From: a bacterium
GTDB taxonomy: Bacteria; SZUA-182; DTGQ01; JAFGSM01
NCBI GenBank assembly: GCA_049472355.1
Contig: JBLIRP010000001.1
Coordinates: forward strand, 26,993 to 90,992
Direction: 5' to 3'
DNA length: 64,000 nucleotides
Positions 5,907 to 60,476 of this stretch are shown here, one piece after another. Positions within the stretch are counted from its first letter, which is position 1; every line of letters begins with the position of its first letter. The notes beneath the pieces are model-generated. The model saw nothing but the letters and a program-made list of their open reading frames with translations, ran no database searches and had not been told where the DNA came from. The translations under genes and the position numbers were made by a program.

Positions 5907-6464
5907 TCAGGGAATCATAGTGGGATAGCCACCAAAACCTCCTAATCCGCCGTACGTACCATACGCATTGGTGCTGTAACCGTACCCGAGGCCTGTACCG
6001 TATCCCAAGCCGGTGCCATAGCCATACCCAAGACCCGTACCGTAACCATATCCAAGGCCGGTGCCATACCCGTACCCCAGGCCCGTGCCGTAACCATACC
6101 CAAGACCGGTAGAATATCCAGGGTAACCATATCCCAGACCCGTGCCAAGACCGTAAAGGAGAGAACCCCCTCTGGAGTCGTCAAAATAATCCCAATCATA
6201 CGAGTGGTGGTATTCACCACCCATTATTCCTCCCATTCCGCCCATGCCGCTCATACCATAGCCCGATGGGTAAAATCCGTAACCGTTGTAAGCATAACCG
6301 CCCCATCCATAACCGCCGTAGCTGCTTCCCATGGCGCCGCCCATGCCGCCGCCTCCCTTTCCGTTGGCAATGGCATTATAGTGCATTGCGGTGGTCACCA
6401 GCATAAGCGCTGCCAATAGTGCGATCGCCATGAACAACAGATTTCTTAATCTCATACCAGACAT
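5907..6464 (-). CDS. secreted Gly/Tyr-rich repetitive protein (GLGYGYGT octapeptide repeats)
   Basis: Signal peptide MSGMRLRNLLFMAIALLAALMLV. About 75% of residues are G, Y, M or S. There are six or more near-perfect GTGLGYGY repeats encoded by 24-bp tandem DNA repeats. Confidence 0.55.
   Translation of the reverse strand: MSGMRLRNLLFMAIALLAALMLVTTAMHYNAIANGKGGGGMGGAMGSSYGGYGWGGYAYNGYGFYPSGYGMSGMGGMGGIMGGEYHHSYDWDYFDDSRGGSLLYGLGTGLGYGYPGYSTGLGYGYGTGLGYGYGTGLGYGYGTGLGYGYGTGLGYGTGLGYGYSTNAYGTYGGLGGFGGYPTMIP
5975..6150. repeat. 24-bp in-frame tandem repeat array inside the Gly/Tyr-rich gene
   Basis: Repeating ccgtaccc[a/c]aggcc[c/g]gt[a/g]ccgta... units are visible directly in the sequence. 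Confidence 0.6.
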
Positions 6465-28648: not shown

Positions 28649-29136
28649 TGCATGTGCCCTGATTAATGGTGACGATTGTTCCTTGGGAATTCACCCGCAG
28701 GGACATATCAAATCTCATCATAGGCATCGAGAGCGTGCTCATATACATGTAATCGGCATAATTCGAACTTTTTGTAGATAATCATGACGGGTTTCGTCAT
28801 AAATATAACGAAAAATGGTAGCATTCTATGAACTATGTGTCAAGATGGATAACATGTTAATTATATTGTCAGAAAAAGCCCTTCCGGCAATGGCGGTCCT
28901 CCTTCAGGGACCTTGGAGGACGAAATTCCATGCCGGAACCGGATTAAATATTTAGTTTATAATAAAAAAATAATAAATAATAAAAATAAATTAATTTAGT
29001 ATACCAGATGCCTCAAACACTGTCAATTAATAACATTAATAACAATTTCATTAATAACAATTTCCGGCAAGGGAGGTCGCATATGCATATGCCCCCGGAC
29101 AATGCCCCCAAACTTCATTGACAGGCAGCGAGGGTA

Positions 29137-30222: not shown

Positions 30223-31010
30223 TGAGATTGGCCATTGTAATCCCTGCACGCTATGGATCGACGCGGTTTGAAGGAAAGCCCCTTGCCCCCCTTCTGGGCA
30301 AGCCCATGATTCGGCATGTGTACGAGCGTGCCGCAAGGGCTCGCCTGGCGGATGCAGTGGTGGTGGCGACCGACGATGATCGAATCGCCTGCTCGGTGAA
30401 GGGTTTCGGGGGAACCGTGGTCATGACCTCCGCCAGCCATCAAACCGGCACGGATCGAATTGCGGAGGTGGCGGAAGGGCTTGATGTTGAATGGATTATA
30501 AACCTCCAGGGGGATGAGCCCTTGATACAGCCGGAGATCATCGACCTGCTTGCACGGTCCATGATGGGGTCCCCTCACGAGCATATGTTCAGCCTCATGC
30601 GTCCCGTGGCTACGGTTGATGAGTACATGAGTCCACACGCGGTAAAGGTGGTCACCGATCACCAGGGATATGCCCTTTATTTTTCACGGGCACCGATTCC
30701 ATGCCCCAAGGGCGGATGGTCAGAGCTACAGGGCGATTCCGAGGGTCATCCGGCGATGAAAAATGCCCATATCCATTGCGGCATCTACGGCTACCGGAAG
30801 GACTTTCTCCTTGCCATTCCATCGATGAGGCCGTCAGTCTTGGAGTGTACGGAGGGGCTGGAGCAGCTTCGGATACTATCCAATGGGCACAGGATCGTGA
30901 TGATCCGCACCGAATACCGGGGCATCGGGGTGGATACGCCCGGGGATATCCCGGTTGTCGAGGATCTGTTGAGAAGGGAAAAAAGATCACTCATGCCCGG
31001 GGCAGGCTGA
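30219..31010 (+). CDS. kdsB: 3-deoxy-manno-octulosonate cytidylyltransferase (CMP-KDO synthetase)
   Basis: [16 protein letters not shown]-terminal motif. 263 aa. ATGA overlap with the upstream gene. Confidence 0.9.
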
Positions 31011-33165
31011 AAACAACCCGGGTGCCCCGGGGATGGTTGTCTTCGATGATGAACTGGCCGTGGTGATCGACGATGATACGATTGACAATGGCGAGGCCGA
31101 GGCCGGTCCCCCCCTTTTTCCGCGAGAAATAGGGCTCCATCAGCTTATCCTTGTCCTCGGGGGATATCCCGGTTCCCCAATCCTCGATTTGAACGGATAC
31201 CATACTATCGTGATTGTTGAAAAATGTCCTGACGTGAAGCCGGCGCTCATCCGTCATTGATTCATACCCATTGTCCAGCAGGTTGATCATGACCCGCTTT
31301 ATCTGATCCCTGTCCATCATTACATGCGGGAGGGACTCGTCGATCGCCATATTCACCGTGCAGTCGGGATGAATGGTGCAGTAAAGGGAAACCGTCTGGC
31401 TGACAAGTGTTCCCAAGTCCTCCGATTTCAGAATCGGATCGGGCATCCGGGCGAATTGTGCGAATTCATCGATAAGCGTCTTGAGCCCCTGCGATCCCTG
31501 AATGATGGTCTCCGTGCACTCCTGCATGAGATCCCGCTCCTTTCCCTCCAAGAACTGGAATTTTCTCCACAGCCGCTCGGCGGAAAGCTGAATGGGCGTA
31601 AGGGGATTCTTGATTTCATGGGCGAGGCGTCGTGCCACCTCCTGCCAGGTGGCGATCTTTTGGGCCTTGATCAACTGGGTCAAATCATCGAATACGATCA
31701 GCAATCCCATCTCGCCCTCCTGGCTGTAAAGCTTGGCAATGCTCACCAGCAGGGTATTGGTCTGGCCACGAAGACGGATATGGATCTCCTTATCGAATAT
31801 GTCTTCCTTGTCCCCCTTTCGCGAAGGGTCGATGATGTCCTTCAAGGGCCTGAGGGCATCCCTCCCAAATGCCTCATGGTAGGAGCGATTCACCACCCTG
31901 CTCGTGTGAAGCATCAGTATCCTCTCAGCCGCAGGATTGATGGAGGTGATTACACCGTTCATGTCGAGGGTGACCACCCCCGAGGTAATGTTGGCAAGAA
32001 CGGTCTCAATGTCCCTTCGCCTGCGGTCAAGCTCCAGATTGGTCTGCTGTATGCCCGAAAGTGCCCGTTTCAGGTCCTCGGTCATGCGATTGAAGGATTC
32101 CACGAGCATGCCGATTTCATCCTTGGCATCAACCGTTACCTTGTAATCCAGGTTCCCCAGGGACACTTCCTTGGTCCCTTCCGCGAGCTTTTGTATGGGG
32201 ACGGTAATCCCCTTTGCCAGATAGATGCCGAACCATGTGGCGGAGAAGATGATCAGGAGAGTCATGAGAAGAAAGGTGATGAGATAGGTCATCTTGAGCG
32301 GCTTCTTGAACACCCGTCTCTTCTGGTATTCCTCATAGGCATTCTTTATATAGGTAATCTCATCCATAAGCCCGTACGGGTCATAATAGTTGAAGAGAAT
32401 GAGCCCCTCGATCGCCTTGTTGTGTTCACGATAGATGGGAACAACCGCCTCAATGAGGTGCCCTTCGCCGGAACGTTGGATGATCGAGTACTCTTTTCCC
32501 TTCAATCCCTTCTCTATGAGTTCACTGTGGGATCCGGCAAATCGACCCATTGGAACGGATGACGCAGGGAGATTGAGAATCTCCCTGCCGGAGTGGTCGA
32601 GCACCTTCACCGGGCCTAATTGGGACGAGATTTGATGCCGGGCGATCAATTGTTTCAGGCGGCCGTATTTATGAGGCGTCAACAGTTCGTTGGCCAGGAT
32701 TTCATCACTGATCGCCCTGGCGGAGGAAAATGCCTTTCCTATGGAGGAGGTGTAATGCACCTGCGCAATGCGCAGGGATTGCTTGAGATACTCTTCATTA
32801 TGGATATTAAACCAGCTTTCGATGCTCTTGCTGATGAGGTTGCTTCCTACCAGGAAGAGAAGAACCGCGGGGATCAGTGAGAGGCTGACGAATGCCAGGA
32901 TCAGTTTTGTTCTGAACTTGGCCCCCAGGACATTCTGTTTATGCTCGAAATATAATTTTATGAGATTCCTGAAAACGAGGAGTATCAGGATGAGCAGGAG
33001 GATGATATTGAGGTTGAGGACAACGAGGACCTGAATGCTGCTGGGGAGATTTGCCCCTTCCCTCCATTGAAAGAGGTAGCTGAGTGAGATGAACAGGAGC
33101 AGGCCGACGGTGCAGATTGCGATAATCGGTAGTATGGGGTGTTTCTTTTTACGGCCCTTTTCCAT
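30991..33165 (-). CDS. NtrY-like sensor histidine kinase (TM-HAMP-PAS-HisKA-HATPase)
   Basis: N-terminal transmembrane segments, HAMP, PAS, H-box (LAHEIKNPLTPIQLSAERL), and N, G1 and G2 boxes at the C-terminus. Likely start MEKGRKKK. Confidence 0.8.
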   Translation of the reverse strand: MEKGRKKKHPILPIIAICTVGLLLFISLSYLFQWREGANLPSSIQVLVVLNLNIILLLILILLVFRNLIKLYFEHKQNVLGAKFRTKLILAFVSLSLIPAVLLFLVGSNLISKSIESWFNIHNEEYLKQSLRIAQVHYTSSIGKAFSSARAISDEILANELLTPHKYGRLKQLIARHQISSQLGPVKVLDHSGREILNLPASSVPMGRFAGSHSELIEKGLKGKEYSIIQRSGEGHLIEAVVPIYREHNKAIEGLILFNYYDPYGLMDEITYIKNAYEEYQKRRVFKKPLKMTYLITFLLMTLLIIFSATWFGIYLAKGITVPIQKLAEGTKEVSLGNLDYKVTVDAKDEIGMLVESFNRMTEDLKRALSGIQQTNLELDRRRRDIETVLANITSGVVTLDMNGVITSINPAAERILMLHTSRVVNRSYHEAFGRDALRPLKDIIDPSRKGDKEDIFDKEIHIRLRGQTNTLLVSIAKLYSQEGEMGLLIVFDDLTQLIKAQKIATWQEVARRLAHEIKNPLTPIQLSAERLWRKFQFLEGKERDLMQECTETIIQGSQGLKTLIDEFAQFARMPDPILKSEDLGTLVSQTVSLYCTIHPDCTVNMAIDESLPHVMMDRDQIKRVMINLLDNGYESMTDERRLHVRTFFNNHDSMVSVQIEDWGTGISPEDKDKLMEPYFSRKKGGTGLGLAIVNRIIVDHHGQFIIEDNHPRGTRVVFSLPRA

Positions 33166-33820
33166 GGTGGACTGAGGCCTGCTCGATCGTTTCGGGCCGT
33201 TTGGGAATGTCGTCAAGTGACACCCTGACCCAGGGGGTATCCACGTTCCACAATGCCACAAAGGCGAGGAGATAATTCAGGGGGAAGGGAATCTTGATAC
33301 ATTTCATCTCGGCGCGAATCTCGAGGTAATAGCGGCCATCGCGGTCCTTTAATTCGGGTATGGCAAGGTGGACTTCTGAGAGTGTGCTCATCCATCGCAC
33401 CATCTCATTCCAATCCGCCGTGGTGAGGTTCTCTTCGGTGCTTTCCGGGTAGGAACGGATGGCAAGGTATTCCTTTTTCAAGACATCGTAGGTCACGGTG
33501 TGGTGAATGGTAAATTCCCGCACCTCCTTGTCAAACCAAAAGCCGCGCCTTTTTATCACCCGGATCAGAAATTTGAACCTTGTCGGGGCGCCGCTGGTGA
33601 CCGCCTCCGTTATGTCCCGGGTAAATCCCCCTTCAATGGAGGCATCCAGGACAATCCCCTGCGAGGTTTTTAACGCCCGTATATGGGTCAATCTGGCCTT
33701 AGCCCCCTCACAGGGCGTAACGCCGAGCATGACGAGCAGGCATACGGCATTGACCAGGACCATGGCCGGAATGCTCCATGACGTATCCGTGAATCTCCGG
33801 ACCGGACCGCCGTAGTTCAT
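33149..33820 (-). CDS. DUF4390-like periplasmic protein, partner of the NtrY-type kinase
   Basis: Signal anchor plus the conserved gene order DUF4390-then-NtrY seen in many Proteobacteria. It overlaps the kinase start by 17 nt. The track ORF extends to 33904, into the tandem repeat. Confidence 0.5.
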   Translation of the reverse strand: MNYGGPVRRFTDTSWSIPAMVLVNAVCLLVMLGVTPCEGAKARLTHIRALKTSQGIVLDASIEGGFTRDITEAVTSGAPTRFKFLIRVIKRRGFWFDKEVREFTIHHTVTYDVLKKEYLAIRSYPESTEENLTTADWNEMVRWMSTLSEVHLAIPELKDRDGRYYLEIRAEMKCIKIPFPLNYLLAFVALWNVDTPWVRVSLDDIPKRPETIEQASVHHGKGP

Positions 33821-33858
33821 TGTGTCAGGTTTGGGGTCAGGTCTTGAATTGTCAGTTT

Positions 33859-34155
33859 TGTTCTGAAAATATCCTGTATTCATCTGAAAATATGACATTT
33901 TCATGCTTCGTGGCGCCGCAAAGCGGCATGAGGGTTTGCTCCGAAAATATCACATATCCTATTGAAAATAATATTTTCATGCTTCGTGGCGGCCCAAAGT
34001 GGCATGAGGGTTTGTCTCGAAAATATCCTGTATTCATCTGAAAATATAGCATTTTCATGCTTCGTGGCGGCACGAAGTGACATGAGGGTTTGCTCTGAAA
34101 ATAAAATCATATTTTCATGCCTCGTGGTGTAACAGGGTGGTATGAGGGTTTGTTG
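33859..34155. repeat. 4 x ~76-78 bp tandem repeat, each unit containing an imperfect hairpin
   Basis: Unit spans are approximately 33859-33941, 33942-34017, 34018-34095 and 34096-34155. The conserved core is gaaaatat...ttttcatgcttcgtggcgNcNcaaagNgNcatgagggtttg; the fourth unit is degenerate. Confidence 0.7.
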
Positions 34156-34196
34156 CAAAAAACTGATATTTCAAGACCTGACCCCATTCTGTTTTT

Positions 34197-34760
34197 TCAA
34201 TACTCGATGCCCTTTCGTGCCGTGAATCCCTTTTGAAAGGGATGCTTTATCAACCTCATATCGGTGACCAGGTCCGCCATAGCCGTCAGCGCCTCAGTGG
34301 ACCTGAGCCCGGTCAGGATGATTTCCACCTGTTCCGGTTTGGTCCTGAGCAGGTCGATTATCTGACTCTCTTCTATCATACCTATATGGAGGGCTGTCAA
34401 TAGCTCGTCAAAGATAAAGACATCATAGGCGATCCGAGCCATGCCCTCACGGGCGCAGGAAATCTCCTGCGCAATGAGGTCCCTCTCACGTTGCCTTTCT
34501 TTCGATGGAAGGGCGCCGTGAATGAATTCGGCTGTATTGGGCCGGTGAAGGATGAATCGGGGTCCAAGCCGCTCAAAGAGCGCCATTTCTCCCGAAAAGG
34601 CATCCATCGGCTTGAGAAACTGCGCCATATATACCGCCAATCCCTGGCCCAGTGCCCTCATTGCCTGGCCAATGGCGGCAGTGGTCTTACCCTTCCCGTT
34701 TCCACAGTAAATCTGGATGATTCCCCTCTCCAACTGAGGACCCGTGCGATCAGTATCCAT
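34197..34760 (-). CDS. cobO: cob(I)yrinic acid a,c-diamide adenosyltransferase (CobO/BtuR family)
   Basis: P-loop-like GNGKGKTTAA and the RGIIQIYCG start. About 188 aa from MDTD. Confidence 0.8.
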   Translation of the reverse strand: MDTDRTGPQLERGIIQIYCGNGKGKTTAAIGQAMRALGQGLAVYMAQFLKPMDAFSGEMALFERLGPRFILHRPNTAEFIHGALPSKERQRERDLIAQEISCAREGMARIAYDVFIFDELLTALHIGMIEESQIIDLLRTKPEQVEIILTGLRSTEALTAMADLVTDMRLIKHPFQKGFTARKGIEY

Positions 34761-35021
34761 TGTTTTCCGCCCGCATATCAAGAGGTTATGAGGAAGCATG
34801 CGCACGCAGTACCTTCGGGGCAGCGTGACCTCATTCTAACAAAAAACGCACCGGGTGTAAATCTAACCCCCTTGCCTGCCTTCCCGTCCTAACCAAACCA
34901 TATCTTCACCCGGCTTGACAATCTTCACCCGGCGTATTGACCTTCGGAGCGGATATGGTAGATAATACACAGCGACAGTGTGTCATGTCTATCTATTTGC
35001 AACAAAGGGGGATTCGCAACC

Positions 35022-44405: not shown

Positions 44406-44441
44406 CGCAACGGCAATTACCCGGTTGAATGGTCATTATGG

Positions 44442-44463
44442 ATGCCCTCGATTCGCAGGGCAT
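44442..44463 (+). terminator. 7-bp stem hairpin downstream of tgt (atgccct-loop-agggcat), no U-tract
   Basis: Inverted repeat at 44442-44448 and 44457-44463. Confidence 0.25.
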
Positions 44464-44620
44464 ATCATTGGTATCATTGGTATCGTTGGTATCAGATGAA
44501 ACTGCGAATGTAGAATGTCGAATGTAGAATGTAGAATGTCGAAGTGAAACGCCCATGAGCCGGATGAAACTGCGAATGTAGAATGTAGAATGTAGAAGTG
44601 AAACGCTCATGAGACTTCGG
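44464..44620. repeat. intergenic repeat region: 10-bp (atcattggt) x3, then two ~60-bp units each carrying 3-5 tandem GAATGT[AC] heptamers and a conserved gaagtgaaacgcYcatgag tail
   Basis: Visible directly in the sequence. Unit 1 is about 44495-44562 and unit 2 about 44563-44618. Confidence 0.65.
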
Positions 44621-44635
44621 CTCACAAGGAAGCAT

Positions 44636-44655
44636 GAAAATCCCGGGGGATTTTC
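44636..44655. promoter_or_regulatory. perfect 9-bp inverted repeat gaaaatccc-gg-gggattttc, about 140 bp upstream of yajC
   Basis: Exact palindrome. Candidate operator or stem-loop. Confidence 0.3.
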
Positions 44656-44795
44656 AGATGAAAGAATCGGAATGCTATGATGAAAAGAATCGAGCACCTC
44701 ATGGATGATGCGCAGCCTTACTCGGGGTACCGTAGCGGGCCATCGGGTCAGGTCCATACGCTTTTATTATCTTTTTATAATAGGGGGAATACGGA

Positions 44796-59927: not shown

Positions 59928-60476
59928 TAACGATCCCTCCTTTCACGTGCGTTAGGTGCAATCTCAGAATAGTGAAGTTCTTCGCCCAAGGCGTCATCTC
60001 CGGCCCTTGGCTGATTGAGCATGGAAAGACACGCCGTCTTGATCGTGCGCAGGATGGCTCCCATGAGGAATCGTGCGCATTGCAGTGATACGTATGTCAA
60101 TAAAGAAATTGAAAGAAACCTATGACGAAGAAATGGAAAGAAGACATGAAGGTATTGTAACCCCTCTTTTTTATCCGGCCTCTCACCTCCTGTCTGGCAA
60201 GAAATTGAAGGTTGTAACCTTATATAAAACAGTTATAAAACAGTAATTATAAAACGAAAATTATGATGAAATAATCGGCGCTTTGCTTTTGGAAATAAAC
60301 GTTATTGCCTATAAAATAATTTATACTATTATTTATTAAATTATACCATCTTGTGGAAACTCAATCAAATAGGGCAGGAAACGCCGGTCCTTATCTCTCG
60401 ATCATCCGCAGAAAAACGATATACTGCCCGCAGAGGAAAACCCATCCGGAACAAGGTCCCGTTTTCGACAGGCCGA

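Follow-up and report, generated by a model that had tools for sequence, protein, structure and literature searches.

A tandem array of short units downstream of cobO

In a 64-kb stretch of the bacterial contig JBLIRP010000001.1 (the window, to which all positions given here refer), the spacer between cobO and a DUF4390 gene, which is followed by the gene of an NtrY-like sensor histidine kinase, contains an array of short repeat units, named A to D along the plus strand. Here we describe this array and its relationship to the termini of insertion sequences (IS) of the IS110 group. A repeat search placed four copies head to tail at 33865–34156, with spacings of 76, 78 and 60 bp. Tandem Repeats Finder (TRF) reported 33857–34103 as the strongest tandem repeat of the window (period 78, 3.2 copies, 82% matches, score 346), and the 18-mer TTTTCATGCTTCGTGGCG occurs four times in the array when up to two mismatches are allowed, compared with 0.04 expected occurrences. 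Thus, TRF, the repeat search and the 18-mer count all bear out the four tandem repeats of about 76 bp seen in the initial annotation of this DNA. All units are in direct orientation, as judged by the repeat search and by R1, a covariance model (CM) of the unit. Pairwise identities are 88% between units A and C, 81% between A and B and 82% between B and C, and unit D shares 59–63% with the others; these values do not support a duplication of two units in an A-B-A'-B' pattern. The coordinates of all features are given in Table 1.

The core of a unit consists of TTTTCATGCTTCGTGGYG, a 5-bp covarying stem and CATGAGGGTTT, and the junction sequences between the units of the window read about GAGCAAAC / GAACAAAA. 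Within each unit there are AT-rich and GC-rich palindromes, and the array folds far better than shuffled sequences on both strands (z = -8.7 and -9.0). The initial annotation had also proposed an imperfect palindrome with an inner ttcgtg/cacgaa stem. A hairpin is indeed present, but this particular pairing is found in unit C only, and the stem that covaries comprises the 5 bp directly 5' of CATGAG. A perfect hairpin stem is found in unit A only, the stems of B to D containing mismatches. That the array is not a CRISPR, as already stated before, holds: the parts between the cores are themselves repeated (units A and C being 88% identical) or, in related arrays, only 7–14 nt long, and no cas-like open reading frames (ORFs) were seen. 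This applies also to a CRISPR mini-array.

Table 1. Features of the array, its surroundings and the second family locus in the window
Feature	Position	Strand	Core on plus strand	Junction pentamer (minus strand)	CM R1 (bits)	Remarks
NtrY-like sensor histidine kinase gene	30991–33165	-				HAMP-PAS-HisKA-HATPase (Pfam); overlaps the end of DUF4390
DUF4390 gene	33149–33820	-				PF14334; start codon 11 nt from left arm
Left arm	33832–33859					TGGGGTCAGGTCTTGAATTGTCAGTTTT; defined by 93% complementarity to 34159–34186
Unit A	33865–33942	-	33898–33938	GGAGC	77.2	Minus-strand order: pentamer, core AAACCCTCATG-(GCCGC/GCGGC stem)-CCACGAAGCATGAAAA, spacer, right-end motif ATATTTTC; aligns with left-end termini of transposase-bearing IS copies
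Unit B	33943–34018	-	33974–34014	GAGAC	74.1	
Unit C	34019–34096	-	34052–34092	AGAGC	75.5	
Unit D	34097–34156	-	34112–34152	GCAAC	44.7	60 bp, degenerate
Right arm	34159–34186					AAAACTGATATTTCAAGACCTGACCCCA
cobO	34197–34760	-				ATP:corrinoid adenosyltransferase, PF02572 (E = 1.8e-53); stop codon 10 nt from right arm; upstream gene of the interrupted operon
Fifth core copy	44585–44652	-			50.8	E = 3e-10; degenerate; in the tgt-yajC spacer

The units correspond to the termini of IS110-family elements

When all ORFs within 3 kb of units were clustered, the largest cluster was an ABC-type ATPase (6 loci). The sole other recurrent family was a 412-aa protein from five loci, an IS110 transposase with the domains PF01548 (DEDD_Tnp_IS110) and PF02371, which is the only protein family near the units that is plausibly linked to the element. 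Integron attC sites, Xer/dif sites and IS200/IS605 ends were dropped as candidates once this link was found, and neither Y1 transposases nor integrases were enriched nearby. In all five loci the transposase gene lies inside the variable stretch of a unit. Read in the sense of the gene, a pentamer and AAACCCTCATG-hairpin-CCACGAAGCATGAAAA come first; some 200 non-coding nt separate them from the transposase gene, which is followed after 6–24 nt by (C)TATTTTC(G/A)-pentamer-AAA and then by unrelated flanking sequence.

As a control for circularity, transposase homologues (62–92% identity) were fetched from the protein side, without use of the motif. Element P0124 is present as identical copies in nine contigs with about 6–7 distinct flanks; the left flanks diverge right before ACCTA-AAACTTTCATGGCCCTATGGGCCACCACGATGCATGAAAAT, the right ones past ATTTTCGTGTTAAATTGAG(C/A)GA. 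The same architecture was found in P0062 and P0025 and, in a diverged form, in P0136. All full-length copies ascertained through the protein have the core on the strand of the transposase gene, ahead of its ATG, and ATTTTC(G/A)-pentamer-AAA 6–24 nt past the stop codon, the distance from core to ATG is 193–206 nt in nine out of nine tabulated variants, and the flanks diverge immediately beyond these terminal motifs. Of the 18 loci found through the protein, 15 have matches to CM R1, 16 in all, with this same position and strand. On its opposite strand the unit core is therefore the left-end terminus of an IS110-family element, and GAAAATA complements the right-end motif, both being seen in nine transposase-bearing variants.

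Of the left end of about 250 nt, a unit retains only the first ~50 nt. The array is not an autonomous IS110 element itself: its units measure 60–78 bp, there is no ORF for a DEDD recombinase in or near it, and it lacks a full left-end bridge RNA. One P0062 copy with a truncated left end was seen repeatedly (L137, L139–L144, about positions 1–1500), directly after an IS1595-family transposase gene and ahead of a WYL-domain gene and a gene for an IS4-like transposase; several samples yielded this nest of insertion sequences.

Left-end RNA and guide-like segments

The left ends (~250 nt) of seven IS variants share a multi-stem fold in which 11 pairs are compensated, and the left end is thus predicted to fold like a bridge RNA. 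Rfam has no model for it. In this RNA (L147:1173–1417, L138:1259–1503 and five other loci) UCCUUUC forms a helix with the GAAAGGA of the ribosome-binding site of the transposase gene.

Two loop segments repeat the junctions of the element in the same sense, G-pentamer-AAAC(TGACC) for the left and CG-pentamer-AAAT(TT) for the right one. The exact match to the junction of the own element averages 7.0 nt on the left and 8.9 nt on the right, compared with 4.5 and 5.2 nt for other variants and 4.1 nt for shuffled sequences. The two guide-like segments are almost alike in several variants (for instance, AATCA in both in L051), and in L107 the junctions of neighbouring units match one or the other guide-like segment of the resident element.

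A dispersed family with a conserved, bulged hairpin

In an exact-pattern scan with one genome per species, the core was found in 12 stretches from seven metagenome-assembled genomes (MAGs) of several phyla. Three stretches each belong to Candidatus Scalindua rubra and to an uncultured deltaproteobacterium, and one to a Nitrospinae bacterium. The others come from four unclassified 'bacterium' MAGs, of which Zod_Metabat.896 has two stretches and three of the JBLIR* accession series have one each; locus L001, which was obtained by a separate look-up and is orthologous to the array site, belongs to this series, too. With a looser pattern the core was found in at least 120 metagenome contigs. On the plus strand of the window, the consensus reads (Y)GAAAATAG followed by 7 to over 200 variable nt, often including a GC-rich hairpin, and then TTTTCATG CTTCGTGGYG, the 5-bp stem with a loop of 3–4 nt, CATGAG(G/T)GTTT and five variable bases. 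This pentamer is immediately followed by the next GAAAATAG in 41 of the 148 distinct copies.

The 5-bp stem is supported by 48 double-change cells, as compared with 12.1 ± 2.9 in shuffled alignments, none out of 500 of which reached the observed value. Compensatory changes occur in four of the five stem pairs, and every control with a slid partner scored far lower. The outer TCAT/ATGA helix is invariant in the copies and hence cannot yield a covariation signal. CTTCGTGGYG forms a conserved unpaired 5' bulge of the hairpin. For IS621, no conserved hairpin with a bulge right at the start of the left end has been described to our knowledge.

Within single genomes the family appears as dispersed repeats with sharp edges, of 272 bp (95% identity) in Scalindua and of about 125 bp, in three copies, in deltaproteobacterium MFD04408. 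In Scalindua rubra (L008:7386–7760, L010, L011), the variable stretch exceeds 200 nt and contains several internal hairpins, the 272-bp repeat is shared between two contigs, and in L008 a second, shorter unit follows the first one in tandem. Relative to the neighbouring ORFs, all four arrangements occur (20/15/13/9), with only a weak bias in orientation. The comparison of presence and absence gives the same picture: the site of the array is empty in L016 and L001, both orthologous to it, the window holds two family loci, and Scalindua rubra and MFD04408 have dispersed copies. Because the family is dispersed, lies in either orientation and is missing from the orthologous loci, a locus-specific array of sites, a leader or a small RNA (sRNA) is disfavoured. 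The initial annotation had listed an element like the repetitive extragenic palindromes (REPs) among its candidates and had named many copies elsewhere as the finding that would speak against a locus-specific role. Such copies exist and, among its candidates, this one alone comes close, but the units are IS110 termini and not REPs in the strict sense.

Rfam 15 gave no relevant match at E <= 10 in 33000–35000. In 12 related loci nothing reached the gathering score, and four full-length IS loci had no match at E <= 0.1. Known ribozymes (hammerhead, pistol, twister, hatchet) were dismissed as they had no Rfam match, and the hammerhead core was not recognized by inspection. A text search of the literature for the core sequence returned unrelated primers only.

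The second family locus of the window is a fifth core copy, missed by the initial annotation. Partial copies of the core and runs of the heptamer TACATTC surround it (about 44466–44745), and the array in L015 has the same composite with 80–92% identity. Altogether, the tgt-yajC spacer (44406–44795) contains the one core, two partial copies (GCAGTTTCATCCGGCTCATGGGCGTTTCAC), the TACATTC runs (TRF 44506–44543 and 44574–44597) and a 9-mer repeat, TATCATTGG (44463–44494).

Some further repeats were recorded in the window. AT-rich stretches with short tandem repeats lie at 28961–29064 and 60223–60344 (CATTAATAACAATTT twice; TATAAAACAGT, TATAAAATTATT), and CM R1 has a match at chance level at 60281–60328 (15 bits, E = 0.48). 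At 5983–6111 there is a tandem repeat of 24/48 bp, CCCAAGACCCGTACCGTAACCATA, with about 4.5 copies and 74–84% matches, which possibly codes for a repetitive protein segment.

Insertion site in the host operon

The array is bracketed exactly by a 28-nt inverted repeat with 93% complementarity, which had escaped the initial annotation. The block bounded by its arms measures 355 bp and fills the 376-bp spacer from the cobO stop (34197) to the start of DUF4390. The order cobO, DUF4390, NtrY-like gene is also present in both orthologous loci examined, L001 (DUF4390 57% identical) and L016 (85%), the latter comprising 1.4 kb with the cobO-DUF4390 junction only. L001 shows in addition a GH57 gene upstream and kdsB and an HD-domain gene downstream, and its NtrY-like orthologue of 724 aa overlaps DUF4390 as in the window. 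In these loci cobO and DUF4390 are separated by only 18 bp (L001) and 13 bp (L016), and CM R1 found no unit in either of them. Since the gene order is kept with a spacer of 13–18 bp, the 355-bp block must be regarded as an insertion.

DUF4390 truly starts with the ATG at 33820, since a 223-aa protein on record matches it with 100% identity from there on. The ORF 33149–33904 starts inside the repeats and its N-terminal extension is derived from them. The initial annotation had noticed this as well as the spurious ORFs 33852–34073 and 33901–34158 in the repeats, both of which are on the minus strand and in the program-made ORF list. The 11 nt before the ATG (33821–33831, AACCTGACACA on the minus strand) are devoid of any Shine-Dalgarno-like sequence; at the empty orthologous site there is GGAAG. 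As this sequence is gone from the 11-nt remnant, the initiation of DUF4390 translation may have changed after the insertion.

Promoter-like and terminator-like sites occur in the array at or below chance level. A reading of TGGCATGAGGGTTTGC as a sigma-54 promoter was rejected since GG and GC are spaced one base too far apart in all units. A repeat RNA of a type III toxin-antitoxin system (ToxI-like) was rejected, too: the neighbours are DUF4390 downstream and cobO upstream, their synteny is kept where the array is missing, and elsewhere the units have unrelated neighbours.

The inverted-repeat arms form the palindrome TGGGGTCAGGTCTTGAA...TTCAAGACCTGACCCCA, and the 16-mer GGGGTCAGGTCTTGAA has only two sites in the window, namely the two arms. 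According to their sequence, the arms without the units would give a long hairpin with the A/T-rich loop TTTTTTAACAAAA. A single arm borders the left-end side of the related array in L015, the other arm being absent there. The palindrome is missing from the empty orthologous site and hence came by insertion itself. At the borders of the 355-bp block a target-site duplication of AA at most can be seen. The arms may be a separate small palindromic element, into the loop of which the units were inserted.

Proposed origin of the array and alternative explanations

In elements of the IS110 group the bridge RNA is encoded in the long left end and the right end is short; these elements move via a circle in which the right-end/left-end junction is the donor site (PMC11208160). 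We consider it likely that the array is a head-to-tail series of four transposase-less, non-autonomous mini-derivatives of such an element of the DEDD, bridge-RNA type. Each unit would join the right-end terminus to the ~50 nt at the start of the left end, the sequence in between having been lost; on the minus strand, in the direction of the operon, it reads junction pentamer, left end, short spacer and right-end motif, (C)TATTTTC(G/A). The unit boundary, TATTTTCR-NNNNN-AAAC on the minus strand, would then be a right-end/left-end junction as in the circular transposition intermediate; for a full-length member one would expect a circle junction of the form TATTTTCG-pentamer-AAAC, followed by the hairpin core. 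Presumably the units were mobilised in trans by the recombinase and bridge RNA of a full-length element, as is possible for a mini-element with both termini and has been proposed for MITEPpu9 (PMC12288879). Two routes could have let the array grow. If the target guide resembles the start of the own left end, new copies would be inserted head to tail beside a resident left end; alternatively, recombination with the donor arm only ('half-match') or duplication in place may have added units. Tandem non-coding repeat units at IS110 loci (bioRxiv 10.64898/2026.08.14.744561) and half-match recombination (bioRxiv 10.64898/2026.08.31.748434) have both been described. The array looks old or assembled from diverged sources and is probably decaying, since the units differ by 12–40% and only unit A has a perfect stem. 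Past cobO, a transcript of the operon would run through ~375 nt of strong RNA structure before reaching DUF4390; the removal of the original ribosome-binding spacer of DUF4390 would be another likely side effect. Altogether, the array is probably selfish mobile DNA and not a dedicated regulator of the sensor-kinase operon.

Several observations weigh against this explanation. No IS110 transposase was found by tblastn in the 64-kb window, so that a cognate autonomous partner in this genome is hypothetical. The flanks of multi-copy elements alone cannot tell an IS terminus from an IS that always resides inside the same repeat. In the hairpin, G.T and A.C mismatches are equally frequent; thus, there is no sign that it acts as RNA on one strand. 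With a divergence of 12–40%, recent duplication in place is unlikely for all units, and there is no recognisable promoter at the unit junctions. The 28-nt arms lie outside the IS110 architecture and their origin is not accounted for by the IS110 model; a derivation from the interior of the IS (shared AAACTGAC) was rejected, the resemblance being insignificant (p = 0.1–0.3).

These arms suggest an alternative, which we regard as unlikely: the whole 355-bp block might be a classical MITE (miniature inverted-repeat transposable element) with 28-bp terminal repeats, moved by a DDE transposase, and the IS110-derived units its cargo or a later insertion into its loop. The 93% complementarity of the arms, their exact position at the borders of the array, the long hairpin with the loop TTTTTTAACAAAA that they would form alone and their own arrival by insertion are all in line with this. 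However, no further copy of the arms exists in the window, the other arm-bearing locus, L015, has one arm only, and there is no clear target-site duplication; moreover, such a MITE would be compatible with the units themselves being IS110 ends. Slightly more doubtful is the idea that the units are REP-like repeats of the host with their own means of spread, which IS110 elements use as a hairpin target in the way of IS621, ISPpu9 and ISPpu10 with REPs. IS110 elements are known to target intergenic stem-loop repeats of the REP type (PMC12288879; bioRxiv 10.64898/2026.03.19.712850), the transposase-bearing copies always lie between two conserved unit motifs, as would result from strict targeting, and several of them adjoin further units (L107, L159, L105). 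We favour IS ends over targets because the guide-like segments match the outer junction pentamers of the units, one of which is ~55 nt away from the insertion point that targeting would need. Also, the core keeps its fixed distance from the ATG down to ~65% protein identity and a recognisable version exists at 62%, and no RAYT or other mobilising gene is enriched near the units. Finally, the unit sequence is kept across phyla, but REPs are lineage-specific.

The main idea of the initial annotation, a cis-regulatory device specific to the DUF4390/NtrY-like operon, either sites for a regulator or enhancer or a structured 5' leader or sRNA, is extremely improbable in the light of these data. It would fit the position directly upstream of DUF4390, the strong folding of both strands and the palindromes in each unit. 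Against it stand the orthologous operons, which lack the array, the units beside unrelated genes in either orientation in many organisms, the missing Rfam match and the lack of any promoter or terminator signal above chance. Very unlikely, too, though a little less so, is an exapted selfish element whose right-end/left-end junctions mimic the promoter of a circle junction, so that the array now drives transcription of DUF4390-ntrY or stabilises it. A hybrid promoter can arise at IS110 circle junctions (PMC11208160; for ISPpu10, PMC12288879), and the left-to-right direction of the units equals that of the operon at both loci of the window and in L015. Yet a sigma-70-like promoter was not seen at the junctions, such a promoter is not universal, as exemplified by ISPpu9 (PMC12288879), and across all loci the orientation is only weakly biased (20 vs 13).

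Going beyond the origin of the units as IS110 mini-derivatives, one may speculate, with little confidence, that the bulged left-end hairpin is a structural determinant of this one IS110 lineage that has so far gone unrecognised, be it as a 5' stem-loop of the bridge RNA to which the recombinase binds or as a 'structural gate' in the DNA comparable to the target stem-loop of ISPpu10. It might guide insertion beside resident copies, given the likeness of the target guide to the start of the own left end, and so give rise to trans-mobilisable arrays across phyla, with the array found here perhaps co-opted for transcribing or stabilising the DUF4390-NtrY message.

Comparison with known systems

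Small intergenic repeats such as BOX of Streptococcus pneumoniae, the bacterial interspersed mosaic elements (BIMEs) and REPs of enterobacteria and Chunjie of Geobacter are modular, with complementary end modules and variable internal tandem modules, and insert into operons without obvious disruption. The units described here have no known sequence relationship to any of them; they are direct, conserved across phyla and match IS110 termini. REPs and BIMEs depend on REP-associated tyrosine (Y1) transposases (RAYTs), alternate in orientation and are specific to lineages. An assignment to this RAYT-dependent class was rejected, as the units are all direct, the core is found across phyla and there is no cluster of Y1 transposases near them.

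Much closer is MITEPpu9 of Pseudomonas putida, an IS110-associated MITE (PMC12288879). Like our units, it is a transposase-less module bounded by sequences resembling the ends of the IS (ISPpu9), located beside the transposase gene or alone. Some copies are tandem duplicates, and the module gives rise to minicircles of its own and has been proposed to hitch-hike on the IS110 transposase. Unlike the units, MITEPpu9 carries an sRNA gene, ssr9, and sits downstream of the transposase. The units consist of ~50 nt of the left end and the right-end motif only, form arrays of up to four or five, stem from an unrelated IS110 lineage and are found in several phyla; for them, mobilisation is a prediction.

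The full-length relatives resemble elements of the IS621 type (PMC11208160, PMC11208158) in their DEDD recombinase (PF01548 + PF02371), the structured left end of ~250 nt and the very short right end. In both, loop segments covary with the junctions of element and target. In contrast to IS621, the window holds no recombinase gene or bridge-RNA body, and the matching segments are contiguous and have the same sense across the junction. In expanded IS110 loci (bioRxiv 10.64898/2026.08.14.744561) and in half-match recombination (bioRxiv 10.64898/2026.08.31.748434), non-coding units accumulate in tandem and keep the matches to the donor arm at their boundaries, as they do here, which one-sided (donor-only) recombination would explain. 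The arrays of expanded IS110 loci, however, adjoin the transposase gene, whereas the array of the window stands alone in a host operon and both ends are kept in each unit.

Implications

Mini-elements of this kind are themselves known and were described in 2025–2026. As far as literature and Rfam show, this IS110 lineage, its left-end hairpin and its stand-alone arrays in host operons have not been described. For the annotation of the window it follows that no regulator array should be placed before the NtrY-like operon, that the two ORFs within the repeats should be disregarded and that DUF4390 is to be started at 33820. For research on bridge recombinases, the units lead to a widespread, uncurated IS110 lineage from bacteria of anoxic sediments, which spans several phyla and at least 120 metagenome contigs and offers sharp termini, a conserved left-end hairpin and guide-like segments covarying with the junctions. 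Its natural transposase-less mini-elements, being arrays of right-end/left-end junctions, would be test substrates for mobilisation in trans, for half-match recombination and for the role of DNA or RNA structure beside the crossover site.

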